Source of the DNA: a virus
Lineage: Duplodnaviria > Heunggongvirae > Uroviricota > Caudoviricetes
Reading direction: 5' to 3' (one strand)
Virus record (IMG/VR): IMGVR_UViG_2579779007_000006
Location: 1 to 41,819 of that record
DNA: 41,819 nucleotides
A program made the position numbers and the translations under genes. The notes under the pieces were generated by a model. The model searched no databases. It saw nothing but the letters and a program-made list of their open reading frames with translations, and was not told the DNA's origin. Every line of letters begins with the position of its first letter. Within the stretch, counting starts at the first letter, position 1. Positions 1-40,375 of the stretch are shown here, in pieces.

Positions 1-804
1 TTACTCTTTGTCCTCAACCAACAATGAGTTTTCGAAAGTAAATTCAGGTATGGGAACAACTTTGTCTTGGGAGAAAATAGCTTTTTTAATTACATGTTTA
101 TTTTTACACGTCTTGCAATATAACTCTGCTCCATCCTCCATGTCGCATAATGAGATGTGGTTTTTTTCACCACATATAAAGCAAGCTACTACAGCAGATT
201 GGAGTGATTCATATGTACCATCCGGGGCAAGTCTAATAATAACATAATTATGGCAACCAGCATTTTGGCAATCTATTTTATTATTTTTTTTCACGTAATT
301 TTTAGTAAAAATAATTTCCTTTTTACATTTTTCACATTTTATTTTCTCATAACCTCGATGAAATGTTATGAGCTGATGATCGCACAGTTCAGCTAAATTC
401 GATAATATCGAATTTAGTTTATCTTTATCTACTTGAAATTCTTGCTTTTTTATGGTTGGTTGATGTAAAAAACTCCCAAGGGTATTATACCATTTATTAA
501 GGTCCTTATACTTAATATTTTTATAGTTTGCTGTTATCTCATTAGAGTCATCACAAGTTATAGTTACTTTTAAATCCTGATCTGCTGTTTCCTCAAACAT
601 GCATAAAGATTTTATTGCTTGAGGTGGTTGCCATGTGTTAATTACCGTCTCTGGAATTGTTCCTAGCCCTGCTCTTAATTGAATATATACATGGCACTCA
701 ATTGCAAATCTCAATTCCAATGCACAGTATCTTAAAGAAGCGTTATCCCCAATTTCATAGAGCCTCTTAGCATTGCTAATATGCTCTTTATAATCATACC
801 CCAT
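1..804 (-). CDS. hypothetical Cys-rich protein, 267 aa, several CxxC pairs (zinc-ribbon-like)
   Basis: Complete ORF: stop codon is the reverse complement of bases 1..3, start at 804. Translation has paired cysteines (CEKC, CQNAGC, CFICGEK, CKTCKNK). Strongly AT-rich compared with the phage structural genes. No family recognised. Confidence 0.5.
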   Translation of the reverse strand: MGYDYKEHISNAKRLYEIGDNASLRYCALELRFAIECHVYIQLRAGLGTIPETVINTWQPPQAIKSLCMFEETADQDLKVTITCDDSNEITANYKNIKYKDLNKWYNTLGSFLHQPTIKKQEFQVDKDKLNSILSNLAELCDHQLITFHRGYEKIKCEKCKKEIIFTKNYVKKNNKIDCQNAGCHNYVIIRLAPDGTYESLQSAVVACFICGEKNHISLCDMEDGAELYCKTCKNKHVIKKAIFSQDKVVPIPEFTFENSLLVEDKE

Positions 805-1537
805 ATACTCCCTCCTACATCTCCGGCTAGATTGTAACTTATATAGTGTATCTTAGATCATCTCACTATCTAAGTAAGATATCATGGGGTATCGGAAGTT
901 CAACTCCTCGCATCAGTCAATAATTTAAATAAAAACAGACGGTTATGTCTTTATTTATTGTTTCCTCTAACTTCCTCCCCGTTGATTAACACACGCGCCA
1001 TAGTCAACTAAATCGGTTGCGACCGGGAGAAGCGGTAGCCAAAATTTTGCCACGATACGAGTGCTTGCCATCCCCCCTCAACTTCCGCTTTTGGCACATA
1101 GCAGCCCTAGAGACAGTGGCGTAAAGTCATGGAGGGTCGGTGGCAGGAGATGCAAATCCTCTCATACAAAAATACGTAAAATCAATAACGGCTAGAAATC
1201 ATTCAATACTCGCACTATCTAACATTTACCAGCCAACCGCAGCACGTCTTGCATACGACCTGTCTGCGGTTTCAATCACCTCTCACCACCAGTCCCATCA
1301 ATAATAATTAAACAGCGCCTAAACAAAATAAATAACAACAAGTCAACAACCTCGACAGGATGCCGATGGGATGATGAAGAGATAAGAAAGAATAACTAGT
1401 AAAGCCCTAAAACGTCAGCGTTCAGACGCGTTTTTTACTTAACCGGTAACAAATACGTTGTATCATAGCAACATAAAATGATTGTTCTAAATCAGATTAA
1501 CTCCTCACTTTTGTACAATGTCGCTTACAGGTATACC

Positions 1538-3427
1538 ATGAAATCCGAGACGCTAACTGTCCAACAACTTTTTCAAGACCGCCGACAATACTGCGTTCCA
1601 TTCTATCAACGTGCCTATGTATGGACTCAGCGAAACCAATGGTCAGCTCTACTGGAGGATATCCTAGAGAAAGCACAATCCCGGCTCTCGGGTACAAAAC
1701 CAACTCCCCATTTCCTTGGTGCAGTGGTACTGGAACCTCAACCAAAAAAAGGATTATTAGGTGTAGATTCCATACATATTATTGATGGTCAGCAACGATT
1801 GACCACTCTTCAATATGTTCTGGCATCCATCCGATTAGCATTACGTGCGACAGATCTTTCCAACTTAGAGCCTCTCATTTCGTCTTGCCTGAAAAACTCA
1901 AACGAAGACACAATGCGAAATAAAGAAGTAGAGCGCTTCAAACTGTGGCCAACTTTTCGGGATCAAACTCATTTTATTCAAAGTTTTAATGTTGAAAATA
2001 TTGACGATATCCGGAATGTATTCTCTGATAGTTTCACGCAGCATGGTACGTTGCGTAAGCATTTTAATCACCCGCCATCACTAGAAGCATTATGTTTTTT
2101 TACTGAAGCCTTTATAAAGTGGATTAAAATAGAAAATCACTCACCACGAGAAAATGCTGTAGCATTAATTGAGGCTGTCTTGACGGATCTGAAACTAGTA
2201 AGCATATTTCTCGAGGCTGAAGATGACGCTCAAATAATTTTTGAAACATTAAATGGCAGAGGTGCGGAACTTCATGCCACAGATCTTATTCGCAATTATA
2301 TTTTTATGTGCGCTGAACATGAAAATATTAATGCTGTTGAATTATATGAGAATGAGTGGAAGATCTTTGAAGATACGTACTGGTCAGAAAGACAACGTCG
2401 TGGTCGTATTAATAAACCACGCATGGAGTGGCTAGTGCATGCGACATTGCAATCAGAAAGGCAACGTGAAATCGATCTGTCTCGTCTTTACAATGAGTAT
2501 CGTGATTATGTAAGTAAGGACTTGCCTTCACAACGAGCAGATCTGCAAGTAAAGCGCCTCAAACAATATGCATCACAATATAAAGAATTGGTTGGTGGTT
2601 TTGGCACAACCCCCATCTCACACTTTGGACATCGCATCGCAGCCTATGATGTGACGACACTTTATCCGCTTGCTTTGTTCATTTCGATAGCTAACATCGC
2701 CGATGATGAGAAAGCAGCCATGTATAATGATCTTGTCTCCTACGTAGTACGAAGAGCCGTATGTGGCCTGACGCCAAAGAATTACAACAATGTATTTATG
2801 AATGTATTGCGGCACTTGTCTAAAACGGAAATTTCCAGTGTTGAGTTACGTAATATCCTCAATAGCTTAAATGGCGAAGCCTCACGTTGGCCTGGGGACT
2901 CAGAATTTCTCAACGCTTGCATCAATGCTCCACTTTATCCTGGCAGGCTCGACGCACCGAAAATGCGCTCAATGTTAACGGAACTTGAAAGAGAACTTTG
3001 TCGCCAAGTGAAGACAGAGAAGCCTGATGTTCCAAATCTTTCTAACCTCGATATCGATCATCTTATGCCTCAAAGTTGGTATTCCTGTTGGCCTCTCGAA
3101 AATGGTCATATGGTGACAAATTCAGATGCTACGGTATTGAACCAAATTGTTCTGTCTGGAACCGATCTTACCCCTGAACAGCTACTGGTAAGGAAACGGC
3201 AACAAGCGATAGCTACGTTGGGAAATCTAACTTTGCTTAACCTTAGCGTAAACCGTTCTGTTCAGAATGCTGTATTTCTGAAAAAACGTGATGCTCTCAT
3301 CGTCCACACCAATCTACGACTGAACATTCCACTTATAGTTAAGGATAAATGGGATGAGGATGAAATCCTGGAGCGGGGTAAAAAGTTGGGGGAAATTGCA
3401 TTGAAAGTATGGCCAAAACACGATTAA
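1538..3427 (+). CDS. GmrSD-like type IV restriction endonuclease candidate (DUF262 N-terminal, DUF1524/HNH-like C-terminal)
   Basis: N-terminal FYQRAYVW and IIDGQQRLTT motifs are typical of DUF262; C-terminal DIDHLMPQSW is a His-Me finger-like motif. Start chosen at MKSETLTVQQLF; the longest ORF begins at 1478. Confidence 0.7.
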   Translation: MKSETLTVQQLFQDRRQYCVPFYQRAYVWTQRNQWSALLEDILEKAQSRLSGTKPTPHFLGAVVLEPQPKKGLLGVDSIHIIDGQQRLTTLQYVLASIRLALRATDLSNLEPLISSCLKNSNEDTMRNKEVERFKLWPTFRDQTHFIQSFNVENIDDIRNVFSDSFTQHGTLRKHFNHPPSLEALCFFTEAFIKWIKIENHSPRENAVALIEAVLTDLKLVSIFLEAEDDAQIIFETLNGRGAELHATDLIRNYIFMCAEHENINAVELYENEWKIFEDTYWSERQRRGRINKPRMEWLVHATLQSERQREIDLSRLYNEYRDYVSKDLPSQRADLQVKRLKQYASQYKELVGGFGTTPISHFGHRIAAYDVTTLYPLALFISIANIADDEKAAMYNDLVSYVVRRAVCGLTPKNYNNVFMNVLRHLSKTEISSVELRNILNSLNGEASRWPGDSEFLNACINAPLYPGRLDAPKMRSMLTELERELCRQVKTEKPDVPNLSNLDIDHLMPQSWYSCWPLENGHMVTNSDATVLNQIVLSGTDLTPEQLLVRKRQQAIATLGNLTLLNLSVNRSVQNAVFLKKRDALIVHTNLRLNIPLIVKDKWDEDEILERGKKLGEIALKVWPKHD

Positions 3428-3522
3428 TGCAATTAATAAAATGATTATAGCGGCTTTACATTAGTAAGGCCGCTACTCACTATTAAATCCTTTAATTTGC
3501 AACAAGAACAGCAGTGTCAGCC

Positions 3523-3651
3523 CTAGGTTTCGGACTTTGTACCGCTTATCTTGTCTTCAAAAATCAGCTCGCATCCTGCACAGCTCAACGCATTACGTTG
3601 TAGATCGGTGTTCTGGTCATTTGTTGATACGCGTACATAGCCAATAAGCAT
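3523..3651 (-). pseudogene. truncated Pin/Gin/Cin-family serine DNA invertase (N-terminal 42 codons only)
   Basis: Minus-strand translation MLIGYVRVSTNDQNTDLQRNALSCAGCELIFEDKISGT matches the N-terminus of Pin/Gin invertases, including the catalytic serine context (VRVST), then ends at a stop after 42 codons. The rest of the gene is absent. Confidence 0.75.
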
Positions 3652-3677
3652 GGTAGCTCCCCCTGACAAAAGCAGGA

Positions 3678-4214
3678 ATGATGCCATTTGCTCGTTATTT
3701 CTGCATTTTCATAAACGTTGGTTTGGGAGAAGGTTCGGCATTACCCGTTGGCGTGCCTGTTCCGTGGCCTTCCGCCACTCCGCCAACAGGCTGGCTGAAA
3801 TGCAACGGAGCGGCTTTTTCTGCTGAAGAATACCCGGAACTGGCAAAGGTTTACCCGACCAATAAATTGCCTGATTTACGTGGTGAGTTTATTCGTGGCT
3901 GGGATGATGAACGTGGTGTGGATAGTGGGCGAACTCTGCTTTCAGCGCAAGGAGATGCTATTCGAAACATTACTGGCGGTTTTGGTCAGTTGCGCGTAAA
4001 CAGCGAAATTAATGCAATTGTCGATGTTCAAAGTGTGAGTGGGGCTTTTTACGGAGGTACCTCAGTCAGGAATAACATCAATGTATCTATGACATACGCT
4101 AATGACCGAAAAATCCGACAAGATGTTCACTTCTCGGCGGCAAATGTTGTTCCAACAGCAAATGAAAATCGTCCACGTAACATCGCCTTTAATTATATTG
4201 TGAGGGCCGCATGA
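3678..4214 (+). CDS. alternative tail-fibre C-terminal (variable) segment, silent orientation
   Basis: ORF shares the GLGE junction with the minus-strand tail fibre and lies inside the invertible segment followed by its own tfa. It has no constant N-terminal domain in this orientation. Confidence 0.6.
   Translation: MMPFARYFCIFINVGLGEGSALPVGVPVPWPSATPPTGWLKCNGAAFSAEEYPELAKVYPTNKLPDLRGEFIRGWDDERGVDSGRTLLSAQGDAIRNITGGFGQLRVNSEINAIVDVQSVSGAFYGGTSVRNNINVSMTYANDRKIRQDVHFSAANVVPTANENRPRNIAFNYIVRAA
3706..3731. repeat. invertase crossover site (pix/gix-like), left copy
   Basis: ttttcataaacgttggtttgggagaa; its reverse complement shares a perfect 14-bp core (ttctcccaaaccaa) with 5590..5615. Both copies lie on the codons for LGLGE in the two tail-fibre reading frames. 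Confidence 0.7.
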
Positions 4215-4816
4215 TGAATAAAGCTGTATTGAATAGCGAACTCATTGCCATAAAAGCGGGAGACATTATCATTTATAATTATGATGGTGAAACGCGGGAA
4301 TATATTTCTACATCAACTGAATATCTCGCTGTCGGCGTCGGTATCCCGGCATGTTCCTGTTTGGATGCACCAGGTACACATAAAGCTGGTTATGCAATCT
4401 GTCGCTCTGTAGATTTAAATTCATGGGAATATGTGCCAGACCATCGCGGTGAAGTTGTCTATAGTACCGAAACGGGAGATACCAAAGAAATCGCAGTTCC
4501 GGGTGATTATCCTGAAAATACAACCACTATCGCCCCGTTAACGCCATATGATAAATGGGATGGTGAGAAATGGGTGACGGATACTGAGGCACAGCATAGT
4601 GCCGCAGTAGACGCGGCAGAAGCACAGCGCCAGTCACTGATTGATGCAGCAATGGCTTCCATTAGTCTGATTCAGCTGAAATTACAGGCCGGACGGAAGT
4701 TGACGCAGGCAGAAACAACCCGACTTAACGCCGTGCTGGATTACACTGACGCGGTGACGGCAACAGATACCAGCACCGCGCCGGATGTCATCTGGCCTGA
4801 ACTGCCGGAGGCGTAG
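4211..4816 (+). CDS. tail fibre assembly protein (Tfa), partner of the silent fibre segment
   Basis: Tfa-like C-terminus (APDVIWPELP) mirrors that of the opposite-strand Tfa (APDIEWPTPP); start overlaps the stop of the preceding ORF. Confidence 0.7.
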   Translation: MMNKAVLNSELIAIKAGDIIIYNYDGETREYISTSTEYLAVGVGIPACSCLDAPGTHKAGYAICRSVDLNSWEYVPDHRGEVVYSTETGDTKEIAVPGDYPENTTTIAPLTPYDKWDGEKWVTDTEAQHSAAVDAAEAQRQSLIDAAMASISLIQLKLQAGRKLTQAETTRLNAVLDYTDAVTATDTSTAPDVIWPELPEA

Positions 4817-5228
4817 GCCATTCAATATCTGGCGCACTGGAAGTATCGACCAGTTCCAGTGCGTCCAGATAATCCAGCCACAGATTATATTGCGCCAGAT
4901 CCTCGCCTTTCAGACGACCAATAGCGGCTTTACCGGGCCATTGTTTACTGTTCATGTATTCATTGGCCTGGCTAATTAACTGCTGTTTTTTAGTTTCAGC
5001 AATATCCATAACCATTTTTTTATCTGGCGGAGATATTAATATCCATGCAGGTCTCCCCTGAGAGGTGGCACCTAATATAAAACCATCAGGAGGAATTTGC
5101 GTATATTTATTCCATTCATCATCTGATATTTCGATAGCATCATCTGGCCATCCAATACCGTTGTGATATTCTTCTTTGCGAGTTTCATCATAAAACCACA
5201 ATGTTGATGCACTGAAAAAAATTCTCAT
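4788..5228 (-). CDS. tail fibre assembly protein (Tfa), expressed orientation
   Basis: 146 aa directly downstream of the expressed tail fibre; conserved Tfa C-terminal motif. Confidence 0.75.
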   Translation of the reverse strand: MRIFFSASTLWFYDETRKEEYHNGIGWPDDAIEISDDEWNKYTQIPPDGFILGATSQGRPAWILISPPDKKMVMDIAETKKQQLISQANEYMNSKQWPGKAAIGRLKGEDLAQYNLWLDYLDALELVDTSSAPDIEWPTPPAVQAR

Positions 5229-5229
5229 T

Positions 5230-5892
5230 CTAATATCCTATCGCAAACCACGAGAAAGAAAGTTCTCTGGAATTGGCTGTTGGTGGCTGACCAATGCCCC
5301 CACGATAAAACGCCAGAGTTAATCCTCCTGCTTTGCGTGATGTTGTTTGAGCAAATACATAGTCATTTGTGTTCTCTTCCGCACTTAAAGCTCCTCCGGC
5401 AATACAGTCATTAGGGAATGCTGCAGGGAAATTAATCCAGATACTGGACTGCGTTGTCAGCTTTCCATACCCGGCTTTCAGAATTAATCCTCCTGGTAAC
5501 TCAAAATTAAGAGGATTGTTTTTTGTAAATGGAAAGTTGGAGATATCCGGTATCTGATTTTCCCCTGTCCCCACATCCCGTTTTGCCGCTTCTCCCAAAC
5601 CAAGGTTTTCGAGAGCCGTTTTCACCGTGCCATCCGATTTGATATCACCAAACGGATTCTTGCGGCTTAACAGCAGAGCACGAAGCGCGGTAAGCAACTG
5701 GTCATGCCGCCCCTTCTCCAGGCTGGCACCGGAGGTCTCCACAACGCTGCAAAGCTCCTCCTGCAACATGTCAAAGTAGTCATCATCCAGATCGGTGGCA
5801 GGCGTACCAGTCTGGGGATTACCACGGGTAAAACCGTTCTTACCCGCGCCGAACTTATCCTTCTGCGCGGTTTTCGTGTCTATACGATGCAT
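5230..5892 (-). CDS. side tail fibre protein (e14 StfE/StfP-like constant N-terminus plus variable C-terminus)
   Basis: N-terminus [52 protein letters not shown] recalls the e14 side tail fibre; the crossover site falls at residues 95-101 (ENLGLGE). Confidence 0.8.
5590..5615. repeat. invertase crossover site (pix/gix-like), right copy
   Basis: ttctcccaaaccaaggttttcgagag, in inverted orientation relative to 3706..3731. Confidence 0.7.
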
Positions 5893-5895
5893 GGA

Positions 5896-6480
5896 TTACT
5901 CCGGATATTTAAAAATTACGTAGGTATGCGACGGGCAGAGTTTGTTAAGCACACATTCGACAACGGTGTCGCCCCAGATACGCAGTGCGGAATCACAGGG
6001 ATCGCCACATGTCATCCAGGTGGTGTTGGTGGCGGCTGGCATGTTGACCTGCCAGTAATACCGCCATTCCGGCGCATTCACCGCGTCAGTACAGGAAGAT
6101 GAGCAGGTGAACGTGCTTTTGTCGTATCGCGTGATGGTAGCGTCTGGTCTGCCCAGGGCAGCAAGCTGTGCAAGGTAAAAATCCTCATTGATGCCGCCCG
6201 CCAGGTTAACCTTCGCATCCAGTCGTTGCTGACGCTGGCGAAGGGTCTGTGTCCCTGCGGGAATACATTCATCCGGCAGACCGCACAGACGCTCCCAGCG
6301 GTTTATCAGTTCAGTGGTGGTGCGCGGATCCAGCTCCCGCATCAGGGCATCCGCACGCTGATGAACGCGGGTTAATGACGGTGCCGCACCGGCAATCGCC
6401 GGATCTCTGGCTGACCACGCCGGACCGGGTGGCAACAGTGCCGACAACAGACGGATGTAATCATCGTTTGTCACGTCCAT
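5896..6480 (-). CDS. baseplate/tail protein, Mu gp48 / YmfQ-like
   Basis: 194 aa immediately upstream of the tail fibre, the position occupied by ymfQ in e14-type tail modules. Confidence 0.65.
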
Positions 6481-7529
6481 GAAATCGTCCCCAGTACCGC
6501 CAGTTCATTTTTTGCAATGGAGATATTGTCTGCCGGTGCAAGCAACTGATGGCTGTATTCCCCGTTCGCACCGGAAATCGCTTCACTGATACGTGACACC
6601 TTCAGTTCTCCCTGCGGATAACCATCACGCAGCAGGAACGAACGCAACTCCGCGGTAATGGCAGCCCGTATTTCTGGTGTGTCCGGCGTCACGCGGATAT
6701 GAAAATCCACCGTATGTGCCACCGGCCTGAATACATACAAATCAGAGCCTGCCACCGGGGCCAGTGGCCCGATATGTTGTCTTGCTGCCGTTTCCGTTGA
6801 TTCTTCCGGAATGGGATTAATCAGGTCACTGCTGGCAATCATCACACCGACAGTTCCCGTTCCCATCCAGTGGCGGTATGTCCATGCACGGGTAATGCCT
6901 GGCACTTCTTTAGCCCAGACGACATAGTCCCCGTCAGCCCCGCCCTGAGGCGTCCAGTAATACCGCTCAATGACGCGGGCGCGCCACGTTTCCAGCTCTT
7001 CAGTATCAAATCCGCCTGTCAGGGTGTCAGCCACACCGGAAGACGGCAGACCATTCACCGGCGTGACCAGGATTAATGCCGTACCGTCGTCAGCGTTACC
7101 GACCGCGCCTGTAGTTGAGCAAGTGATCGGCACACGCAGGACACCACCGGAGCTGGTTGCATCGGCAGTTGCCGTGTACTGAACCAGGTCATCGCGCTGA
7201 ATCACGCTCCCGGCAGTCACCTTCAGGCCATCGCTGACACCTTCCCAGCGCATATACCCGCTGGCAGCCGTGGCCCCCTTGCGCGGACACCGTTTCATCG
7301 CAGCATGTCGCGCCAGCCAGGACTCATCGCACAGGTCAGGCAGCATATTCATTGCCAGATAATCGATGTACCCGTAAACCGTATGCAGCGCCGCCGCATA
7401 CACCTTTGCCCGCACGTCTTCATCCATGCGCCGGAGCGTGTCGCTGACGTCCAGCCTGGCGAATAAATCGTTACGGAGCATACTGATATTTTCTGCCAGC
7501 GTCGGGCGCTGAAATTCACTGTCCGCCAT
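6471..7529 (-). CDS. baseplate J-like protein (Mu gp47-like)
   Basis: 352 aa in conserved gene order between the gp46-like and gp48-like genes; overlapping start/stop. Confidence 0.75.
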
Positions 7530-7944
7530 GCGTTATCGCACTCCACAGATCATCAAAAGAAATCATTACCGGTCCGTCACGACGCCAGAGAGTGATACTG
7601 TTACCCAGTTCATTAATCCCGGTGCGGCGGATATCCAGATCAATACGGGACACCACGCCGTCATCAACCATCCATTGCAGGCATTCGCGGATATACCCCC
7701 TTACCGTCTGCACCAGCTGATTGGTCAGTTTGCTGCGCTGAAGCAGCCACAGTCGGGAGCCGTAACGGTCATTCTGTACCGCAGGCCAGGTATCCCCCCA
7801 CCATCCCATCGGGACGTCGGCGTTGTCATCAGGCTCCGCCCGCCGCCAGGTAAACAGGGAAATCACCACGGCGCGGGTCAGCGGATCCAGCGGTGCGCTG
7901 GCGCAGGTGCGTTTACCGTTCACCGTCAGCCACAGTTCCATCAT
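7516..7944 (-). CDS. baseplate protein, Mu gp46-like
   Basis: 142 aa, conserved position in a Mu-type baseplate operon. Confidence 0.65.
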   Translation of the reverse strand: MMELWLTVNGKRTCASAPLDPLTRAVVISLFTWRRAEPDDNADVPMGWWGDTWPAVQNDRYGSRLWLLQRSKLTNQLVQTVRGYIRECLQWMVDDGVVSRIDLDIRRTGINELGNSITLWRRDGPVMISFDDLWSAITHGGQ

Positions 7945-8489
7945 GCCTCCATCGCTTTATCAGGTTTGTCGGTGTTACTGCCCTGACCGTTCTCTCTGTG
8001 ACGATGCCCGTTATAGGCAAGCCGCATCGCTGACATGGTGGTGCCGCCGGAGTCGCACAGGTCTTTCACCTGTCCTGTCACTTCCAGGTCCATTTCAAAA
8101 CGTGCTTCAGGTGCATTGCGAAACGTGATCGTTTTACCTGCACCGTCCACCACGATCCCCTCCCGGGTCAGCGTCACGGACTGCCCCTGATCGTCATAGA
8201 CAGCCACCTCACCCGTCTGCAGCCCTTTCAGGCGGTAGCGCCGGTCCGACACCGTAACAACCACCGCATGAGAACGGTCGCCATCCGGAAACAACACCAC
8301 CGCTTCCGCACCGCTGTTTGCCCTTGCGGTAAAACCGTAGGGTTCAAGATGTTCAACCCCGGCTTTGGGTTCACCGGCAATCAGGGACACATCCACGGTC
8401 TGACATTTCGTGGCGGCACTGATGCTTTTCACCACTGCCCGCCCAATCAGGCCGAGAAGTTGTCGCTGCATGGCTTCAATCGTCCTCAT
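7941..8489 (-). CDS. baseplate spike/assembly protein (Mu gp45 / P2 gpV-like)
   Basis: 182 aa following the P-like gene; translationally coupled. Confidence 0.65.
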   Translation of the reverse strand: MRTIEAMQRQLLGLIGRAVVKSISAATKCQTVDVSLIAGEPKAGVEHLEPYGFTARANSGAEAVVLFPDGDRSHAVVVTVSDRRYRLKGLQTGEVAVYDDQGQSVTLTREGIVVDGAGKTITFRNAPEARFEMDLEVTGQVKDLCDSGGTTMSAMRLAYNGHRHRENGQGSNTDKPDKAMEA

Positions 8490-9568
8490 CAGAACGGGTC
8501 CTCCTGTACTCTGGCTTTTTTCTTTTTCCGCGCACCGGGATCTTCGGGTTCAGGCAGATAAGCATCAGGTGGGCCGACACGGATTTCCGTCAGGGTGCCG
8601 TTCTGGTCCTGAGTAAACGTGACTTCCGAAACAAGCAGTTCGGTATTGTCGAAACCACAGACCGGATCAAAGACAATCACCCGCTGGTTGGGCTGCCACA
8701 GCGTACCGTTACCCTGTCGCCAGCCCTGCACCACATAGGTGGTTTCATCCGTCCGCGCCGCCCGTTGTCGGGCTTCAAAGTCCGCACGGGCAATACAGCC
8801 TGCCCCCGTAGCCTGCCCTGTCTGCCTGATATACATCGGACGGTAACGGGCAATAAATGCGTCCTCTGTGCGGGCCCGCAGCGCGGTGGTGGTGGCCTCA
8901 CCGAAATCATCGTCGTTTCCGGCACGCTGCCCCGCCACCTGGTAAACAGAAAATCGCTCCCGGATACTCTTCTCCGTATCGCAGGAAAGGATGTTTTCCC
9001 CGAGTACCAGCGCAGTATGTGCCCGCGTTGAGCCAATACCGCCAATCACCAGCCTGCCGTGCGGGTCGTCGTAAGCCAGTGCCTGCTGCTGACCGAGTAT
9101 TTTGTTGATTACCTCAATCACCGTTTCACCGTGATCAGGCTGAACATCAGGAATAACACCCGACGGCGCACCGCTGTTCACCACCTCAATGCCGAAAGGC
9201 GCAGCAAGCGCCTGCGCAATCTGCACCAGCGAGCGTCCGTTAAACTGTGTCGGTTCGGCTGCACAGTCAATCAGGTCAGCCGTCAGACTACGTCCGGCAA
9301 TACCGGTGCTGACCGAACGGGCATCGTAACGAACGGGAGTCGCCTCCACCCAGCCGGTGATCACCAGCTCATCACCAATCAGCACTTCCACTTTTGAACC
9401 GTTTTTAATGCGCGGCTGAAGCGTGGTGATACCCTCATCTCCCGGCCACTGGCGAGTGATCTCCACACTGAAATCCCGCGCCAGCCGTTCAATACCGGCA
9501 CCGATGCGCACCGATGTCCAGCCATTCCACTCCCGGCCATTTACCCGTAGCGTGACATTGTCGTTCAT
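8489..9568 (-). CDS. Mu P-like tail/baseplate hub protein
   Basis: 359 aa in conserved order after the DNA circulation protein. Confidence 0.7.
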   Translation of the reverse strand: MNDNVTLRVNGREWNGWTSVRIGAGIERLARDFSVEITRQWPGDEGITTLQPRIKNGSKVEVLIGDELVITGWVEATPVRYDARSVSTGIAGRSLTADLIDCAAEPTQFNGRSLVQIAQALAAPFGIEVVNSGAPSGVIPDVQPDHGETVIEVINKILGQQQALAYDDPHGRLVIGGIGSTRAHTALVLGENILSCDTEKSIRERFSVYQVAGQRAGNDDDFGEATTTALRARTEDAFIARYRPMYIRQTGQATGAGCIARADFEARQRAARTDETTYVVQGWRQGNGTLWQPNQRVIVFDPVCGFDNTELLVSEVTFTQDQNGTLTEIRVGPPDAYLPEPEDPGARKKKKARVQEDPF

Positions 9569-10935
9569 TGCACTGGCACCTTCAGAGGGATCACCGGCAC
9601 AAAGCCGGGATGCGTAATGGCATTACGCCGGATAATGTCCGCGTCACGCGCCGCGTTATCAAACCAGGTCGCCGCCAGCACCAGCGCGGGTAAAACCTCA
9701 TCCGGCGTGCGCTGAATGATCCGTGCAGACTGTTCAAGGCGCGTGTTGATATCCGCATTCAGATCTGCTTTCACCCGGCGCAGCGCCAGAAACAGCGCAT
9801 CACTGGTTGTACGGGACAACTCCTTATCAATTGCCGTATTCAGTGTGTCGCGAATGTCGGTCAGTTCTTCCCACGTTGGCAGGTCAACCGTGTTTTTCAC
9901 CGCCGGTGCATTGTTCAGTGCCGGATGCGTGACAGAAGGCCAGCCGGTGCTCTGCGCGGGTGTTGTTGACTGCCCCACTGTGGCATTCTGCATCACCGCG
10001 GAAGTTGTGGGCGCAGGCAATCGTGTGACGGCATACGCCGCTTCGCTGATTGCGGTCGTACGAAGGGTGCTGGCAACCACGTTACGCTGCTGCGTCGCCG
10101 TGGCGGTGGTTTTACTGTCCGTTTTCCAGACGCCGCGCGGTTGCAGATCGCTGCCGAGGCTGACACCGGAAAGCGTTTTGATCATGGTGACCAGGTCGCT
10201 GGCGTTACCATAAAGGCGTTTCCCGGTACGCCACATTTTCTGCACCTGCTCAACGAAATTTTTGCCTGACGATGGCGGCGGCAGAAGTACCGAGATATCC
10301 CCCTGCAACAGCCTGGCGGCATCCGATACGGCAGAATCCACCACTTTCATCGCATCAGAAACATACCCAAGCATTGTGCTGGCATTACCGACGACGTCGT
10401 TCTGCACAAAATCTGCCACGCCATCGATACTGAAACCACTGAAGCTGTCACTGATGCAGTCATCCAGTGCAGAACAGGATGACATCAGCGTCTGCGCCGT
10501 CGCCGCACCTGAAGTGGGGTAAGAGAGTTCTCCCGCTTCGACAAACTTCAGGTCAAAGCGGACAATACGCCCTTCACTCTTCGATGTGCTGACCCGAACT
10601 TCCCCGTCAACACAGACTTTCAGCTCACCGTAAGTCGGATGGACAAGCGTGCCGGGACCGGGTTTATTCAGCGCGTCAATCAGGCGATCGCGCTGGTCAA
10701 AGCAGTCATCTCCCACCACATAAGCTGTGATGGACGGGCGGAAAGTGATTTTCCCCAGGTCTTCGGTATAGGGTTTGTCGCGGTTCGGGTATTCGTGCGT
10801 TTCCACACGACGACCGGTTCCCGCACTTTCTTCTTCAACCTTAAATGGCACACCGCGAAATGACGCGTCCTGAAGTCTGTCTTTCCACGTCATATAAACT
10901 CCGTACATAAAAAATCCCACCGGAGTGGGACTCAT
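9565..10935 (-). CDS. DNA circulation protein (Mu N-like)
   Basis: 456 aa immediately downstream of the tape measure gene, as in Mu-type tail modules. Confidence 0.7.
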   Translation of the reverse strand: MSPTPVGFFMYGVYMTWKDRLQDASFRGVPFKVEEESAGTGRRVETHEYPNRDKPYTEDLGKITFRPSITAYVVGDDCFDQRDRLIDALNKPGPGTLVHPTYGELKVCVDGEVRVSTSKSEGRIVRFDLKFVEAGELSYPTSGAATAQTLMSSCSALDDCISDSFSGFSIDGVADFVQNDVVGNASTMLGYVSDAMKVVDSAVSDAARLLQGDISVLLPPPSSGKNFVEQVQKMWRTGKRLYGNASDLVTMIKTLSGVSLGSDLQPRGVWKTDSKTTATATQQRNVVASTLRTTAISEAAYAVTRLPAPTTSAVMQNATVGQSTTPAQSTGWPSVTHPALNNAPAVKNTVDLPTWEELTDIRDTLNTAIDKELSRTTSDALFLALRRVKADLNADINTRLEQSARIIQRTPDEVLPALVLAATWFDNAARDADIIRRNAITHPGFVPVIPLKVPVQ

Positions 10936-10953
10936 TAACAGATTAATTTTTCA

Positions 10954-12789
10954 TTACCTGCCAAAGCGCGTATAGCCAACATCATGGCTGACATCAAAAC
11001 CGCTGGATCGCGTTTCCATAACCCGCATACCCGGAGGCGAATTCACAAAAGAGACCTTGATCTCACCATCAACTTTTGGCGCAGAAGCTTTGTTAATCAT
11101 GAAGGGATTCGGGCCTGTGGCATCGGAGGCGTTGTTTGACTGAGCCGGATCCACCGCCTGATAAGGTGTGTATCCCCGTGCCGGTATTCCCGTCCCATAA
11201 GCATCATAAGCACCCGCGCCCCACTGCGCAGAGTTAATGGCATCGACCGTGTCACCGGAACTGTCGGTAAACCACTCAATAATTGGCTTCAGCTTGTCCC
11301 ACATATCCTGAAACCACTTAACAACCGGTCCCCAGTTATTGATTACCATCCCCAGCGGCGACCAGGCAAAAACCTTCTTCAGAAGTTCCCAGCCAGCCTC
11401 AAAATAAGGACCAATGGTTTCCCAGAGCTTCTTGAAATAAGGTCCGACAACATCCCAGTTAGTGATAATTAATCCCGCAGCCAGGGCTATCGCCGTCGCA
11501 ATCATTCCAATCGGCGTCATCGACATGATCCTGCTGACAATACTGATGGCACCGCCAACGCCCATCAATCCCAGTTTCAGAATCGCAAGACCGGCAGCAA
11601 GCCCGACGACGCCGCGAATAACCCGGGGATTTTCATCCGCAAACTTCGTGAATTTTTCCCCTAACTCCCCCAGCCATTGCGTGATATTTTTGGCGTCACC
11701 AGAAAATGCGCCGCCAATAGCCGCAAGGCCGTTAGTTGCGGTCCCCGTCATTGCCTCCCACAGGTTGGACAGCGTACCAAGCTGGGCCTGAACACGTTTA
11801 TTCAGGCTGGCCTGTTTATTCATCTTCTGCTGGATCTGATCGTAGCCATCCTTTCCTTTATCGATTAGTGCATTGACCACCTGAAGGGTTTCGGCATCAT
11901 CACCAAATATTGCCTTAAGTACACCTGTTCGCTTAACGTCGGTCAGTTTTCGCAGCTTTGCCAGTTGCCTGAACATGTTATCAAGACCGCCAAAACTTCC
12001 TTTGCCGTCAGTAAAATCGAGCTGTACCCCGAGTTTCTGGCGGGCCATGACTTTATTGACGTCCCTGATTTTCTTAACGCTTAATCCGGACTGGATAACT
12101 TTTCGCAGGGCATTACCTGCCGACTCCCCGTTCATCCCCATCTGATCCATCATGACGCTGATGGGGGCAAGGCTCTGTGCAGCCTGAAGACCGTCCTTGT
12201 TCACCATCTTCAGAACAGAACTGGTTTTAGTGAAGAAGGACAACATGTTGGTATCGTCAACGCCCAGATAAAACGCCTTCTGGATAGTGTCGAACAGCCC
12301 CATCATGTCTTCTGACGCCGTTCCGGTAGCATCCTGCATCTTTGCAGCAAACTCAGCAGCCGCTTCCGGTGTTTTTTTCAGTTGTACCGCAAGATAAGCT
12401 GTCGCTTTACCTACACCGCCAAGAATGTTTTCTGCCGGGATCCCCTGACGCACCAGCATCTGCATCATGTTCTGGAAATCAGCCGTTGTACCGGGTAGCT
12501 GGTTACCCAGACCAATAGCCAGTTTATTGATGTCCTGAAAGCTCTTTCCGACCTCGCCGTTCGCATCCATCATGGCGACTTTCAGCCCGGTGGCGGCGTT
12601 TTCCTGATCAGCATAAGATTTCAGGGAAAGCGTCAGACCCGCTGCCAGTCCGCCACCAAGCGCCAGCCCACCCTGTGACGCTTCTTCCGCCTGGCGTTTA
12701 AATCCCCGGATTTTCTTTTGCATTTTCGACAGCGCGGGAGAAAGCCTGTCGACACCGGTGATCAACGCCTTAAGCTCAAATTCAGCCAT
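10954..12789 (-). CDS. tail tape measure protein
   Basis: 611 aa, Ala/Gly-rich with a hydrophobic segment, positioned after the tail chaperones. Confidence 0.85.
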   Translation of the reverse strand: MAEFELKALITGVDRLSPALSKMQKKIRGFKRQAEEASQGGLALGGGLAAGLTLSLKSYADQENAATGLKVAMMDANGEVGKSFQDINKLAIGLGNQLPGTTADFQNMMQMLVRQGIPAENILGGVGKATAYLAVQLKKTPEAAAEFAAKMQDATGTASEDMMGLFDTIQKAFYLGVDDTNMLSFFTKTSSVLKMVNKDGLQAAQSLAPISVMMDQMGMNGESAGNALRKVIQSGLSVKKIRDVNKVMARQKLGVQLDFTDGKGSFGGLDNMFRQLAKLRKLTDVKRTGVLKAIFGDDAETLQVVNALIDKGKDGYDQIQQKMNKQASLNKRVQAQLGTLSNLWEAMTGTATNGLAAIGGAFSGDAKNITQWLGELGEKFTKFADENPRVIRGVVGLAAGLAILKLGLMGVGGAISIVSRIMSMTPIGMIATAIALAAGLIITNWDVVGPYFKKLWETIGPYFEAGWELLKKVFAWSPLGMVINNWGPVVKWFQDMWDKLKPIIEWFTDSSGDTVDAINSAQWGAGAYDAYGTGIPARGYTPYQAVDPAQSNNASDATGPNPFMINKASAPKVDGEIKVSFVNSPPGMRVMETRSSGFDVSHDVGYTRFGR

Positions 12790-12964
12790 GTGTGCGTTTC
12801 TCCTGCTCTATCCTGTTTGCCTGACTGACCAGCAAGGGAATTTCACTGATCGGCATATTCAGCAATTCGAAGGGATTAATGCGCCAGTAGCTGGCGCAGT
12901 CAAAGAAGCGATCAGTGAGGTATTCAGCCGTCAGGCCTGGAGGAAAAAACCAGCCACAAGCCAC
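12782..12964 (-). CDS. tail assembly chaperone, frameshift-extension ORF
   Basis: Lies in the -1 frame relative to 12931..13200 and overlaps it by 34 nt; a TTTTTTC-type slippery run on the coding strand sits in the overlap; its end overlaps the tape measure start. Confidence 0.5.
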   Translation of the reverse strand: MACGWFFPPGLTAEYLTDRFFDCASYWRINPFELLNMPISEIPLLVSQANRIEQEKRTHG

Positions 12965-13200
12965 GCCGCTGCATTCAGGTCTGCCGGAGACATCTGGTCG
13001 ACAGAGCTTTGCGGCACTTTCGCCAGCCGCACAATGTATTTCGACACCACATGCGCCAGAAGTCTGACGGACTCATCCTGATTCATCTGGTAGGGATACC
13101 CCAGCTCGCGGACATCCTTCCCGGTGGGTTCATCAAACTCCAGTACGGAGAGTGTCTCACCATGAGCGATAATCGGTTTCTTTAACTCAAGCTCTTTCAT
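12931..13200 (-). CDS. tail assembly chaperone
   Basis: 89 aa between tail tube and tape measure genes. Confidence 0.7.
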   Translation of the reverse strand: MKELELKKPIIAHGETLSVLEFDEPTGKDVRELGYPYQMNQDESVRLLAHVVSKYIVRLAKVPQSSVDQMSPADLNAAAWLVAGFFLQA

Positions 13201-13556
13201 TACTGGTAATCCCCTTCTTCACCGTGGAACTCAAGATCAACCGTGCCTTCTTCGGCATTATGGTTCGCTTCTCCGTGCAGCCAGGCGGACGACAATACAT
13301 AGACCTGACCGTTCGCCAGCTCGGCAGTGATGGTCATCTCATCAGACGAGGTGATTTTGCTCACCGGAAAATTCTTCGGCACCTTGAAGGTCCCTTTGAC
13401 ATAAGGCGCACGGTGAGTTTCCTTGCGGTCCACTGAACCGTCCAGGCCGATGATGTCATCATTGACCGTCCTGTTCATGGGCACCTCAATGCCGCCGGTC
13501 AGCGATAGCTGCTGACCGTCAATTTTGAAATAACAGGTTCCCCCGATACGGGCCAT
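13200..13556 (-). CDS. tail tube protein (contractile tail)
   Basis: 118 aa directly downstream of the sheath gene. Confidence 0.8.
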   Translation of the reverse strand: MARIGGTCYFKIDGQQLSLTGGIEVPMNRTVNDDIIGLDGSVDRKETHRAPYVKGTFKVPKNFPVSKITSSDEMTITAELANGQVYVLSSAWLHGEANHNAEEGTVDLEFHGEEGDYQ

Positions 13557-15052
13557 TATGCAGACTCCTCTGAATACTGAAGACGGAACTGGTTAACCAC
13601 GGCAAAAACACGCAACTGGTTAACATAGTCAGGCGGGAACAGCGTGTTCAGGCGGTTCGGATCGCTGGCATCACGCTCCACAACCAGATACTGCTTAAAC
13701 AGTTCGTAGTTTTCCACGATCCCCGCACGCTCAAGCTGACGGTAGGTTGCCAGCAGTTCCCCTTTGATTACCGCCGGGGTGACAATCGCCTGACCGGGAC
13801 CAAAGCGGGTACCGTCGCTGGCAAGCTTGTGACGCCCGTACTTACTGGTAATGACGGATTTCAGTTTGCGCAGTACATACGCACTGGTATGCAGCGTCTC
13901 GCTGTCGAGGTAGCTGTTATCCGCAACCCCGTAAGCATTTTTCCTGTACGTGGTGACATCACGCTGAATGCGCAGCACCCCGCTTTCGACATACGCCGTT
14001 GCCACGCCATGAGACAGCAGGGTCTGCTGCTCGGTCATCGTGAACCGTTTCCCCTTCGGCGCAGGCAGCATACCCACCAGCTCACCGGTCTGCGTGGGAC
14101 GTGCCGGATCGTTGCGGATAAACACCGCTGCGCGGGCGGTACGGCTTGCCGCCAGCTCGTCGGCAGGCGTCTGGGTGTCTTTTTCGTACCCCGCCAGGGT
14201 AATGTGCTGCTGGTTAAACTGGTCACCTGCGGTCACCAGTTCTGACAGCGTGCCGATCTTTGCCGTATACACATGACCATACAGCTGACGCGCATAGCTC
14301 CAGCGACCGCTGGTATCGTTCATCTCGGTCACCAGCGTGTTAACGGAGGCCGTGTCGTTGAACGGCAGGCCGATATAATCAAACGGCTCATCCGCCATTG
14401 CAGCCACCGCGCCGGTGAGAACAGGAGCGCCCGTTCCGGCGTTCCCCGTCGCCACGGCAATCTGTACGCCCGCTGGCAGCACTTCGCCCCCACCGAAGCC
14501 GTAGTAATTGAGGCTGACAGGAATTTCATTCCCGCAAAGCCCCTTATGACGCGCGGTCAGTGTGACCACGCCAGCCGAAGATGAAGCTGTAAACGGCAGA
14601 GTCGGAACGGCATTGATGGCATCTTTGATACTGCTGGCAATCGTCGTGACGTTATCGCCGTTGGTCACCGGTGCCTGCACGCGGGTACGTCCCACATAAA
14701 CATTCACCGTGCCGGTTTTGGTTGCCGCCCCGGTCACCGTCAGCGTAACTGTTGCCGCCGCGCCCGTGGATTCAGGAACGGCAATCACATACAGCTCACC
14801 AAACGGGTCGGTCTGGCGATAAGCCTCGACCATACGCGCCAGCTGACTTCCCGCACCACAAATCTGGCGTGCATAGTCTGCCGACGGCATCAGCACCAGA
14901 CGGTTGGCAACAATCTCTGCACCGTTATTGGCATGACCAATCAGCAGCGATGCTCCGCTGTCCTGTGCAGTATTCGCAGCCTGGTTATCCATTTCCGCAT
15001 AAAACAGCGGAACCAGCGTATTCGACGGAATGGTGTTAAAGCTTATCGTCAT
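13556..15052 (-). CDS. tail sheath protein (contractile tail)
   Basis: 498 aa in the sheath-tube-chaperone-tape measure order typical of myovirus tails. Confidence 0.85.
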   Translation of the reverse strand: MTISFNTIPSNTLVPLFYAEMDNQAANTAQDSGASLLIGHANNGAEIVANRLVLMPSADYARQICGAGSQLARMVEAYRQTDPFGELYVIAVPESTGAAATVTLTVTGAATKTGTVNVYVGRTRVQAPVTNGDNVTTIASSIKDAINAVPTLPFTASSSAGVVTLTARHKGLCGNEIPVSLNYYGFGGGEVLPAGVQIAVATGNAGTGAPVLTGAVAAMADEPFDYIGLPFNDTASVNTLVTEMNDTSGRWSYARQLYGHVYTAKIGTLSELVTAGDQFNQQHITLAGYEKDTQTPADELAASRTARAAVFIRNDPARPTQTGELVGMLPAPKGKRFTMTEQQTLLSHGVATAYVESGVLRIQRDVTTYRKNAYGVADNSYLDSETLHTSAYVLRKLKSVITSKYGRHKLASDGTRFGPGQAIVTPAVIKGELLATYRQLERAGIVENYELFKQYLVVERDASDPNRLNTLFPPDYVNQLRVFAVVNQFRLQYSEESA

Positions 15053-15206
15053 CGGTGTTCACCTTTTTATTCACGCGCCGGATATCACCCGCTGCTTCAC
15101 GGCGCAGCCAGTAGTTGTTCTCATCAACATTTCGCCCTTCGGCGGGCAAAAGGTCGCCGCGGGCAGGATCAGGAACTGACCGCCCTTTAACAGGTTTCAC
15201 AAACAT
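15036..15206 (-). CDS. small hypothetical phage protein (56 aa)
   Basis: ORF MFVKPVKGRSVPDPARGDLLPAEGRN... with a GAGGA ribosome-binding site; below the 60-aa cut-off of the supplied track; overlaps the sheath start by 17 nt. Confidence 0.4.
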   Translation of the reverse strand: MFVKPVKGRSVPDPARGDLLPAEGRNVDENNYWLRREAAGDIRRVNKKVNTDDDKL

Positions 15207-15214
15207 GATGATCC

Positions 15215-15775
15215 TCAGGAAGGAAGGGGTATTTCGGTGTGATGTTCGATATCGCCGTCAGGCCCGTTACCGGGATCGAGATAATCAACATCAATCGCCA
15301 GCGTTCGCAGTTCATCCAGACTGTTCAGGTCATCCTGCTGGCGGGTATCGTCTTCGGTCAGCTCGCTGATGACCGAAAAATCGAACTGATAAATCAGCTC
15401 ATGACGATTCAGATCCAGCAGCGTGCCGCCGTCATAGGTAATCGGGTTACCACACGCTTCCGGGTTCCAGCCCAGCAGAGCCTTAAAGAGCATCTGCCGG
15501 ACATCGTCCACCACATCATACGAGGCAAACTGACCGCGCTCATCACGCCCGTTACTCAGTATGACAACCACGGAGAAGCCCTCTTTCAGCTCCTGCCAGT
15601 AGTCGGTCTGGCTTTTGTTTTCTCCCGGAGAGTCATCACCCGGTACCACATATGCCGCCGGGAGCTTCAGCTTTCCGACCTCCGGCAGATTTTTGAACTG
15701 GGCCGCGCCTGCCACCCGGTTTTCAAAATACGGACAGCGGGCACGCAGCGCAGCAATAACAGGAGTCAGTTTCAT
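15215..15775 (-). CDS. putative tail completion/neck protein
   Basis: 186 aa between the gp10-like gene and the sheath gene; assignment by position only. Confidence 0.5.
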   Translation of the reverse strand: MKLTPVIAALRARCPYFENRVAGAAQFKNLPEVGKLKLPAAYVVPGDDSPGENKSQTDYWQELKEGFSVVVILSNGRDERGQFASYDVVDDVRQMLFKALLGWNPEACGNPITYDGGTLLDLNRHELIYQFDFSVISELTEDDTRQQDDLNSLDELRTLAIDVDYLDPGNGPDGDIEHHTEIPLPS

Positions 15776-16278
15776 CTGTGTCGTCGCTCCGGCTTCAGTG
15801 ATTTACGCAATTCCCGCGCCAGAAAATAGCGTGTCCAGCTGCGGTTCTTTTCAAGCGTTTCCACCATGAAGTTATTACGTGGAGCCAGTCGCCAGCCGCT
15901 GCCACCGGATGCACCACGATGATGGCTGCGACGACGCTTTGCCCCTCGCCTCACGCCATAGAACAAAAAAGCCGGATAAAAATCACCGGTGATACGACGG
16001 TTTCCCTCTCCATTACGCTGGTTAGGGGCTATACGTGCCATAAAACCAGGGCGATGTTTACTGGCTCTGGGTACCATGTAACCAATCGAATGAGCCAGGC
16101 GTCCGGTCTGATAACCGGGGTTTTCACCCGGTGCCGACCGCGCACGGCGCATCACCAGCCGACGGGCATCACGCATATGACGCTGACCAATCGTGACAAA
16201 CGCCCGCCGGACACGGGCGCGGTTAAAGCGCATCTCCGCAGGCTGCTGAAAATCAACGTGCAAAAAGGAAGTCGTCAT
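15772..16278 (-). CDS. HK97 gp10-family head-tail joining protein
   Basis: 168 aa, very basic, in conserved order. Confidence 0.6.
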   Translation of the reverse strand: MTTSFLHVDFQQPAEMRFNRARVRRAFVTIGQRHMRDARRLVMRRARSAPGENPGYQTGRLAHSIGYMVPRASKHRPGFMARIAPNQRNGEGNRRITGDFYPAFLFYGVRRGAKRRRSHHRGASGGSGWRLAPRNNFMVETLEKNRSWTRYFLARELRKSLKPERRHR

Positions 16279-16663
16279 TGTTGTCTCCGTGACTCTGCCT
16301 ACATTCGCCCAGCTCCGTACACTCCAGCAGCAGAAAGCGCCGCGCCCCGTTCAGATCGCGCTGACGTTTCACCCGGTACACACTGTCACCGCAGACCACC
16401 TCATAATCAGCGGTGATCCCCCGGCGGTAACGAATGGTGATGTAATGGGTGATGGCGTCCCCGGTCTGCGCGGTTTCCTGCCAGGTGGTGGCACTGGTCT
16501 GGATAACCTTCGCCCATGTCCGGAACGTAACCGGGTATTGAGGCTCCACGCCAAAGTTATCCGCGGGCATATCCACCCGCTGGCGGATCAGGACGCGTTT
16601 ATTCAGTTCACCGGGGTCCGGCAGAATGTAGGTTGCGCTGGTCTGCGCCTGACGAATTTTCAT
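16253..16663 (-). CDS. head closure / head-tail adaptor protein
   Basis: 136 aa following the gp6-like connector gene. Confidence 0.6.
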   Translation of the reverse strand: MKIRQAQTSATYILPDPGELNKRVLIRQRVDMPADNFGVEPQYPVTFRTWAKVIQTSATTWQETAQTGDAITHYITIRYRRGITADYEVVCGDSVYRVKRQRDLNGARRFLLLECTELGECRQSHGDNNDDFLFAR

Positions 16664-16983
16664 TGCGGAAAGTACCTGTACGGGCCGACAAGCCAGCCAA
16701 AACTCTGCGGCATGTCGAGTTTCTCCACTTCCGTAACCGACGAGCGGTTTTCGTAAAAATGGCTGATAAGCATCAGCATCCCCAGACGAATATCATCCGG
16801 CAGGTGCAGCCCGTCCGGATCGCTGTCCGGAATGGTTTCATCCGGTGCATAGAGCTTCCGGTTCAGATACGTTTCCGTCCGCTTTTGTGCCGCACAGGCC
16901 AGCAGTTGCAGATGGCGGTCATCAGCATCGAAATCCTCATCCAGCCGGAGTTGGGCTTTAATCTCTTCCATTGTCAGAAGCAT
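16660..16983 (-). CDS. gp6-like head-tail connector protein
   Basis: 107 aa, position after the capsid gene. Confidence 0.65.
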   Translation of the reverse strand: MLLTMEEIKAQLRLDEDFDADDRHLQLLACAAQKRTETYLNRKLYAPDETIPDSDPDGLHLPDDIRLGMLMLISHFYENRSSVTEVEKLDMPQSFGWLVGPYRYFPQ

Positions 16984-24736: not shown

Positions 24737-25063
24737 TTACTCCTTAGAGCCACCAAATTTGTTACCGATTACTCGCATTGCAGCCCCACGAATAGCATCG
24801 ACACCGATCAGCCCCACCCCACCACCAATGGCAACAGATAGTGATTTAGGCCATCCGACATACTCAAGAGCGGATGCAAAAGTCAGCGTCAGAGCACCAC
24901 AGAGTAGAATTTCGAGTGTTTTTCGCTTCCAGCCGCCACCACCGCCAAAATAGGCAATACGTAAACCAGCCATAACAATCGACATAATCACTGCGCCCAG
25001 CGGTGTGTCTCCACGCCACCAGCTCTGGACCAACTCCAGCCAGGTATTTGGGTTATGAGGCAT
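24737..25063 (-). CDS. holin
   Basis: 108 aa with hydrophobic helices and a charged C-terminus, immediately upstream of the endolysin. Confidence 0.8.
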   Translation of the reverse strand: MPHNPNTWLELVQSWWRGDTPLGAVIMSIVMAGLRIAYFGGGGGWKRKTLEILLCGALTLTFASALEYVGWPKSLSVAIGGGVGLIGVDAIRGAAMRVIGNKFGGSKE

Positions 25064-25463
25064 TTGTAGTTATCTCTCACCTCGCCAATACAGGAGGTGC
25101 AAATTGAGGGAACATCATGTACCGCAAATCAGAAGCGGAAACGTAAAAGAGGCCGAGCCAATGGATAACTGCGGTATAGACCAGGCTCAACAAATAGCCG
25201 GGTCCAGAAACGACAAACCCGCTCGACGGCGGGTTTAAGCTGTGTGGCGAAGTGACCACTCTTAACACGATACAATAGTTTTTGCGTACGCGTTAGCATT
25301 TTTGATGGAAGTTAATGGTTGTTAATCTTATACTCAGTAAACAAAATTTATGCCGCCTTGAGCATGATGCGACATTAGGCACATGTTTGGATCTTCCTCG
25401 AAGATTCGTGCGGTAGCTATGCTCAAAATCCAATCAGCTCATAAAACATACTATGGGTTTTAA

Positions 25464-26213: not shown

Positions 26214-26228
26214 AAATGGTGGTATGAT

Positions 26229-27191: not shown

Positions 27192-27218
27192 GGCGGTACT
27201 ACCGCCTTTTATTATTTT
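27192..27218 (+). terminator. rho-independent terminator of the three-gene cassette
   Basis: ggcggt-act-accgcc stem-loop followed by ttttattatttt, directly after the cassette stop codon and abutting the 3' end of Q. Confidence 0.7.
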
Positions 27219-27576: not shown

Positions 27577-27579
27577 AAA

Positions 27580-35050: not shown

Positions 35051-35094
35051 ACAACCTCCTTTTTTTGATAATCCTTGCACTCCTTGGCTACTCG

Positions 35095-40361: not shown

Positions 40362-40375
40362 CTTATTGATTTTAA

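Follow-up and report, generated by a model that had tools for sequence, protein, structure and literature searches.

Among the switches of the Din family (Hin/Gin/Cin/Pin), phage Mu with its G segment and Gin, and likewise P1 with its C segment and Cin, carry alternative fibre tips and their chaperones on an invertible segment next to a fibre gene with a constant N-terminus. In Mu, 26-bp sites lie over the coding junction, and the invertase gene is found just outside one of them. The P-region of the E. coli K-12 cryptic prophage e14 (stfP-tfaP / tfaE-stfE, pinE) has the gene order ymfQ, fibre, tfa, then a second tfa and tip on the opposite strand, then pin. Both PinE and, acting in trans, PinQ of prophage Qin invert its P segment, and K-12 pinE deletion mutants are reported to be locked despite the presence of pinQ (Kirigo et al. 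2025, PMC12529663). The locked mutants could mean that inversion in trans is inefficient, or that the enhancer was removed together with pinE. A further described case is prophage Phi4 of strain EC958, in which a tail-fibre segment inverts despite the truncation of its own invertase, and for which the authors credit an invertase acting in trans (Forde et al. 2014, PMC4134206).

The DNA analysed here is a stretch of 41,819 nucleotides, referred to below as the window. Close to one end it contains what is very probably an invertible segment of the e14 P-region type, a Din-family switch that has been orphaned by the destruction of its own invertase. What remains of the window looks like a complete myovirus prophage running from terminase to integrase, with genes for terminase, portal, capsid, sheath, tape measure, baseplate J, a CI-like repressor, and a tyrosine integrase. 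The prophage ends at a tRNA-Thr(CGU) adjoining a gene of the aldehyde dehydrogenase family (417 aa), which we take to be proA. The K-12 e14 element, in contrast, is a 15-kb remnant at icd. Integration in icd as for K-12 e14 was considered for the window and rejected, since the flank is the aldehyde-dehydrogenase-family gene beside tRNA-Thr. The segment and the two sites that bound it are as follows.

3706-3731, minus strand: invertase-proximal 26-bp crossover site (pix), TTCTCCCAAACCAACGTTTATGAAAA, made up of TTCTCCCAAACC-AA-CGTTTATGAAAA; 26/26 identical to the pinE-side site of K-12 e14 (L005 5606-5631)
5590-5615, plus strand: fibre-side 26-bp crossover site (pix), TTCTCCCAAACCAAGGTTTTCGAGAG, made up of TTCTCCCAAACC-AA-GGTTTTCGAGAG; 26/26 identical to the stfP-side site of K-12 e14
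3719-5602, no strand: invertible segment, 1,884 bp between the central dinucleotides (1,797 bp in K-12 e14); natural flipped isomers end inside the 20-bp repeats

The two sites stand in inverted orientation and match at 21 of 26 positions. Both have the dinucleotide AA at their center (positions 13-14) and contain the exact 14-mer TTCTCCCAAACCAA, and each is an imperfect dyad, with self-dyad matches of 16/26 and 18/26. The fibre-side site falls in frame on the codons ALENLGLGE of the 220-aa fibre ORF, and the invertase-proximal site falls in frame on the INVGLGE codons of the plus-strand ORF at 3678-4214. The first-pass annotation had described two inverted 26-bp sites with a perfect 14-bp core, placed on LGLGE codons where the constant and variable parts of the fibre join. 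Its coordinates and 14-mer are borne out, and the codons covered are N-L/V-G-L-G-E in frame. The alignment that it proposed with the e14 pix and Mu gix sites gives full identity to the two P-segment sites of e14 and, by manual count, 18/26 to Mu gix (TTCCTGTAAACCGAGGTTTTGGATAA). Mu gix shares the half-site motif AAACC..GGTTT with the window sites but has GA as its central dinucleotide. Mu differs in addition by its segment of about 3 kb, its intact Gin, and the much longer constant part of its fibre (S = 504 aa).

Within the 41.8-kb window the exact 14-mer occurs at these two sites only. Allowing up to 2 mismatches gives 3 hits versus 0.40 expected, a count reached in 0/100 shuffles of the window; the third hit (2 mismatches, 62-75) falls in an unrelated ORF. 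A shufflon or multiple-inversion system, of the Rci tyrosine recombinase or p15B Min type, was rejected because the core is present at two sites only. A repeat search recovers the site pair as a 20-nt inverted repeat with 95% identity at 3713-3732 / 5589-5608. This is not longer than chance repeats of the same list, for example I1 (23 nt, 87%), which lies in the same 5 kb. What makes the repeat significant is where it lies and that it is identical to known sites, not its length.

The genes on the segment and immediately beside it are these.

5896-6480, minus strand: YmfQ / Mu gp48-like baseplate gene (PF10076, E=7e-27), directly upstream of the fibre gene, in an operon context
5230-5892, minus strand: assembled tail-fibre gene, 220 aa, with a Gp53-like_C tip (PF21882, E=5.4e-12)
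4788-5228, minus strand: chaperone of the assembled tip, Caudo_TAP (PF02413, E=4e-30), 45% identical to K-12 TfaP
4211-4816, plus strand: TfaE-like chaperone of the alternative tip (PF02413, E=3e-31), 91% identical to K-12 TfaE
3678-4214, plus strand: StfE-like ORF, 178 aa, with a Collar domain (PF07484, E=1.6e-15), 62% identical to K-12 StfE

The fibre gene starts 3 nt past the stop of the ymfQ-like gene. Its constant N-terminal part comprises about codons 1-97 (5603-5892) and is nearly identical to K-12 StfP, while the tip has diverged. The locus shares with K-12 e14 both 26-bp sites, the constant fibre N-terminus, the order of genes, and the 29-bp tail-to-tail overlap of the two chaperone genes seen there in tfaP/tfaE. 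The tip alleles are different, with identities over the whole protein of 56% to StfP and the 62% to StfE given above, mostly contributed by the shared N-terminal part. On the plus strand, ORF 3678-4214 begins with an 18-aa leader that has its own ATG outside the segment and continues into the Collar tip exon (about 3720-4214). StfE2 of K-12, in which the corresponding leader is joined to the other tip, has been reported to have a function (PMC12529663).

The segment as a whole is also found elsewhere. A P2-like prophage has a copy of this 1.9-kb cassette with 99.3% identity. The fibre to which it is joined there has 514 aa, its neighbour is an intact invertase with 87% identity to PinE, and homology between the two prophages stops at the crossover sites. 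Modular exchange of fibre cassettes has already been described (Sandmeier 1994, as cited in PMC4134206). A search of the phage collection with the segment returned only partial matches, covering no more than 60% of it at about 88-92% identity among the records listed, and the exact tip pair was found in no sequenced phage among those records.

To examine the consequences of inversion, the segment 3719-5602 was inverted in silico at the central dinucleotide. This produces a 261-aa fibre in frame and without a stop, followed directly by the TfaE-like gene. Both orientations consequently have an uninterrupted fibre gene, of 220 aa or 261 aa, with a Caudo_TAP gene directly after it. The predicted 261-aa product is identical at 259/261 positions to WP_000554687.1 from E. 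coli Res13-Sevr-PER07-33, and the predicted left junction of the inverted arrangement is identical at 701/701 positions to the sequence of that strain. The first-pass annotation had named a frameshifted or interrupted fibre gene upon inversion as the outcome that would count against it, and the fusion is free of interruption. Its comparison with the Mu G segment and the e14 P-region was apt, the locus being the e14 P-region itself with different tip alleles. Its division into an expressed tip with Tfa on the minus strand and a silent tip with Tfa on the plus strand agrees with the Pfam domains as far as layout is concerned, but the word "silent" was an assumption, and the plus-strand tip has a leader with its own ATG. 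A promoter scan of 3380-6000 found no sigma-70-like promoter upstream of the StfE-like ORF and gave fewer hits in total than shuffles did; it speaks neither for nor against expression of this tip.

Natural isomers of both orientations exist. We compared the window with 44 kb around the prophage of Res13-Sevr-PER07-33 (L007). Positions 1-3732 are collinear at 99.97%, positions 3713-5608 are inverted relative to L007 6170-4275 at 99.42%, and positions 5589-16770 are collinear again at 97.4%. The Res13 prophage is closely related but mosaic, with identity elsewhere down to about 92%. A tighter comparison is provided by APEC O1 and APEC E16002, both O1:K1:H7, in which a segment of 1,939 bp is inverted at 99.9% identity between flanks that are 99.98% and 99.94% identical. 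In these two independent pairs the natural breakpoints lie inside the crossover sites. The segment thus inverts in relatives, the breaks falling at the sites, and it may do so in the source strain, which is represented here by one assembled sequence. Between-strain comparison of this kind differs from the evidence for EC958 Phi4, where inversion was seen in reads of a single culture. Phi4 is also a different prophage, with sites of TTATCGAATACCTCGGTTTACAGGAA type and a 3.1-kb segment.

The intact pin gene that stands beside the P segment in K-12 e14 is reduced here to 41 codons, and a different restriction gene takes the place of mcrA.

3528-3651, minus strand: truncated invertase gene (delta-pin), 124 nt, 41 codons; Resolvase N-terminal domain, profile positions 2-48 of 145
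1478-3427, plus strand: GmrSD-type type IV restriction gene, 649 aa; Pfam GmrSD_N and GmrSD_C; PADLOC mREase_IV, 1440 bits, full length

The part homologous to pinE begins with the ATG at 3651 and breaks off at 3528, after ...AAGTCCGAAA; a stop codon follows two codons on. The retained 124 nt have 4 mismatches to K-12 pinE. In Din-family systems the segment adjoins a gene for a small serine invertase that combines a catalytic domain with a C-terminal HTH. Here a remnant is left from which the DNA-binding domain is missing entirely and the catalytic domain for the most part, and RefSeq labels the same stub in relatives "incomplete; missing C-terminus." Searches by tblastn with PinE and Gin found no other invertase in the 41.8-kb window. 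The breakpoint is adjoined by a hairpin and the 3' end of the GmrSD gene, which replaces the 3' part of pin together with mcrA relative to K-12 e14, where pinE is followed by mcrA. This pattern indicates that one defence gene was exchanged for another at this end of the prophage, which cost the element most of pin, and with the invertase cut to 41 codons the switch cannot drive itself. We note that mcrA is likewise a type IV restriction gene. The truncation of pin was absent from the first-pass annotation.

Of 5,426 complete E. coli genomes, 304 (about 5.6%) have this truncation junction, which marks it as one inherited event. Beside the stub, the Collar tip is found in 67 records and a gp53-like or hypothetical tip in at least 39 of the records listed. 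The two APEC genomes both carry the stub, and since they are near-identical and have the segment in opposite orientations, at least one inversion must have taken place after the truncation. A site-specific enzyme supplied in trans was presumably responsible; with a repeat of only 20 bp, no other cause is nearly as likely.

Sequences that could supply such an enzyme were sought with a composite query consisting of a tag and the 3' part of pinE. It has matches in 4,773 of the 5,426 genomes, at a median of 2 places in each, and most complete E. coli genomes accordingly contain sequences like the 3' part of pinE. Many stub-carrying genomes of ST95 type nonetheless have no second pinE-like chromosomal sequence, in either orientation class, which suggests that many copies of the segment are probably locked at present. 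By the composite query, orientation was unrelated to whether the chromosome has a second pinE-like gene; this result applies to pinE-like genes, as the query is blind to enzymes of the PinQ/PinR type that are only 38% identical at the protein level.

Taken together with the gene order, these features suggest how the element would work. On the minus strand, a late operon leads through the baseplate genes to a short fibre gene whose first ~97 codons are fixed, and whichever segment end faces the fibre gene would supply the C-terminal receptor-binding tip and the chaperone downstream of it. In the present orientation this is the Gp53-like tip of the 220-aa fibre. Staggered cleavage at the central AA of both sites would be expected to yield the 261-aa fibre with the Collar tip and the TfaE-like chaperone. 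We expect that flipping is now possible only through a related invertase provided in trans by another prophage, a plasmid, or an infecting phage, and that the segment would otherwise be locked in its present orientation. An element of this kind is already known from a textbook family; its orphaned state is the sole twist, and that too has a precedent.

The alternative that survives best holds that the locus is a relic, formerly an invertible region, that in this host stopped inverting with the loss of pin, the two orientations of the population having been fixed by rare past events. The window without an invertase, the many stub genomes without a second pinE-like chromosomal sequence, and the locked phenotype reported for K-12 pinE mutants (PMC12529663) would all be consistent with this. 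The near-clonal APEC pair is difficult to reconcile with it, as these two genomes differ by an inversion while both carry the stub. A putative enhancer region and both sites have also remained intact, the sites being identical to functional ones in K-12, and inversion in trans is documented for the Din family (PMC12529663, PMC4134206). We consider such a relic a serious possibility, if the lesser one. It differs from a switch that still responds in trans only in its present-day rate and not in the nature of the element.

A second alternative dispenses with site-specific inversion altogether and attributes the two orientations to RecA-dependent recombination between short inverted repeats, or to import of a segment that was already inverted. 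Recombinational exchange does occur in these prophages, as the cassette shared with the P2-like prophage attests, and the mosaic identity to L007, from 92% to 99.97% along the window, would allow for import. The repeat shared by the two sites, however, is only 20 bp with one mismatch, a length at or below the minimum for an efficient RecA substrate. In the APEC pair, moreover, identity is at least 99.9% in flanks and segment alike, with breakpoints exactly within the crossover sites. We regard this explanation as quite improbable. That the sites are a chance inverted repeat and the plus-strand ORFs unrelated leftovers, for which the presence of similar-length inverted repeats such as I1 in the same 5 kb might be adduced, has next to no probability and is refuted by the in-frame 261-aa fusion, the natural protein that matches it at 259/261 positions, and the natural isomers of both orientations, and is at odds also with the 26/26 identity to both e14 sites and the 0/100 shuffles that reach the observed count.

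One further feature lies in the retained 5' stub of the invertase gene, which covers the region in which sites of a Fis enhancer would be expected.

3567-3630, no strand: putative recombinational (Fis) enhancer inside the pin stub, recognized by homology; two G-N13-C 15-mers

The 15-mer GTATCAACAAATGAC at 3616-3630 is identical in Mu gin, and the 15-mer GTGCAGGATGCGAGC at 3567-3581 is near-identical there. Their centers lie about 95 and 145 bp from the center of the crossover site. The enhancer of hin measures 65 bp and lies about 100 bp from hixL, and its two Fis sites are spaced by 47 bp (PMC3798978), to be compared with the 49 bp between the two putative cores in the stub. The rule used to scan for Fis sites is crude, G-N13-C plus a few preferred positions, and its hits are supportive only. 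These similarities suggest that the stub may still contain a cis-acting Fis enhancer. It is conceivable, though in our view rather doubtful, that the stub has been kept for the sake of this enhancer, which would make the P-region an orphan switch responsive to invertases from other prophages, plasmids, and infecting phages.

A classic phage host-range switch was in this case correctly recognized from the sequence alone. What the comparison with other genomes adds is that a widespread e14-type lineage lost its invertase to the replacement of a restriction gene and yet has flipped since. Loci with an "incomplete recombinase" should therefore not be assumed to be locked, which matters for their annotation and for long-read assemblies. 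The lineage also offers a natural test case for whether a 5' invertase stub is kept for its enhancer. If it is, the GmrSD swap would have changed a host-range switch under the prophage's own control into one that answers to co-resident or incoming elements, and StfE2-like receptor-masking chimeras might arise from the leader of the ORF at 3678.

The GmrSD restriction gene, the leader of the 'silent' Collar-domain tip, an isolated plus-strand module and the immunity and integration regions of the e14-type prophage comprise the following features, by window coordinates:

1-804, minus strand: ORF of 267 aa whose C-terminal half carries Cys-rich motifs
1478-3427, plus strand: GmrSD-type type IV restriction enzyme (PADLOC mREase_IV, 1440 bits, full-length)
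3678-3731, plus strand: 18-aa leader (MMPFARYFCIFINVGLGE) of the 'silent' tip, with its own ATG, outside the invertible segment
25464-27191, plus strand: three successive ORFs (249, 114 and 205 aa) in a late/lysis region otherwise on the minus strand
33491-34177: CI-like repressor gene
34160-35080, minus strand: 306-aa protein bearing a BRCT domain at its C-terminus, adjoining the repressor gene
39198-40361: tyrosine integrase
40376-40451, minus strand: tRNA-Thr(CGU)

The integrase and tRNA are followed by a 417-aa aldehyde-dehydrogenase-family gene (39198-41819 in all), which we take to be proA, and this order indicates that the present e14-like prophage is integrated at a tRNA-Thr site, whereas e14 of K-12 is integrated in icd. 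A BRCT domain is unusual in a prophage immunity region.

K-12 e14 also differs in carrying mcrA at the position taken here by the GmrSD gene, whose insertion removed the 3' three-quarters of the invertase gene pin. This end of the prophage appears to be a hotspot for defence gene exchange. The neighboring 267-aa ORF, which had no match in Pfam or PADLOC, is kept beside GmrSD in the related prophage of E. coli Res13 (WP_021574463.1, hypothetical) and may either be the restriction gene's partner or represent independent cargo. A 23-nt inverted repeat (87%) between the GmrSD gene (2612-2634) and the Collar tip (4022-4044) is probably a chance match.

The three plus-strand ORFs likewise gave no Pfam or PADLOC matches, and in the prophage comparison 25027-27584 was absent from the otherwise similar Res13 prophage; this stretch resembles a moron or a cargo module.

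Since the leader and its ATG lie outside the invertible segment, a short leader-tip ORF is possible with either tip, and promoter prediction found none upstream of the ORF at 3678. The equivalent chimera in K-12, StfE2, has been reported to block T2 adsorption (PMC12529663).

The two-tip cassette is also found, at 99.3% identity, in a P2-like prophage of E. coli DETEC-E601 (locus L003, 3001-4910), where it forms a fusion with a P2-H-like fibre of 514 aa, next to an intact invertase. Homology between L003 and the window stops at the crossover sites, which indicates that the cassette is transferred between tail modules unrelated to one another.
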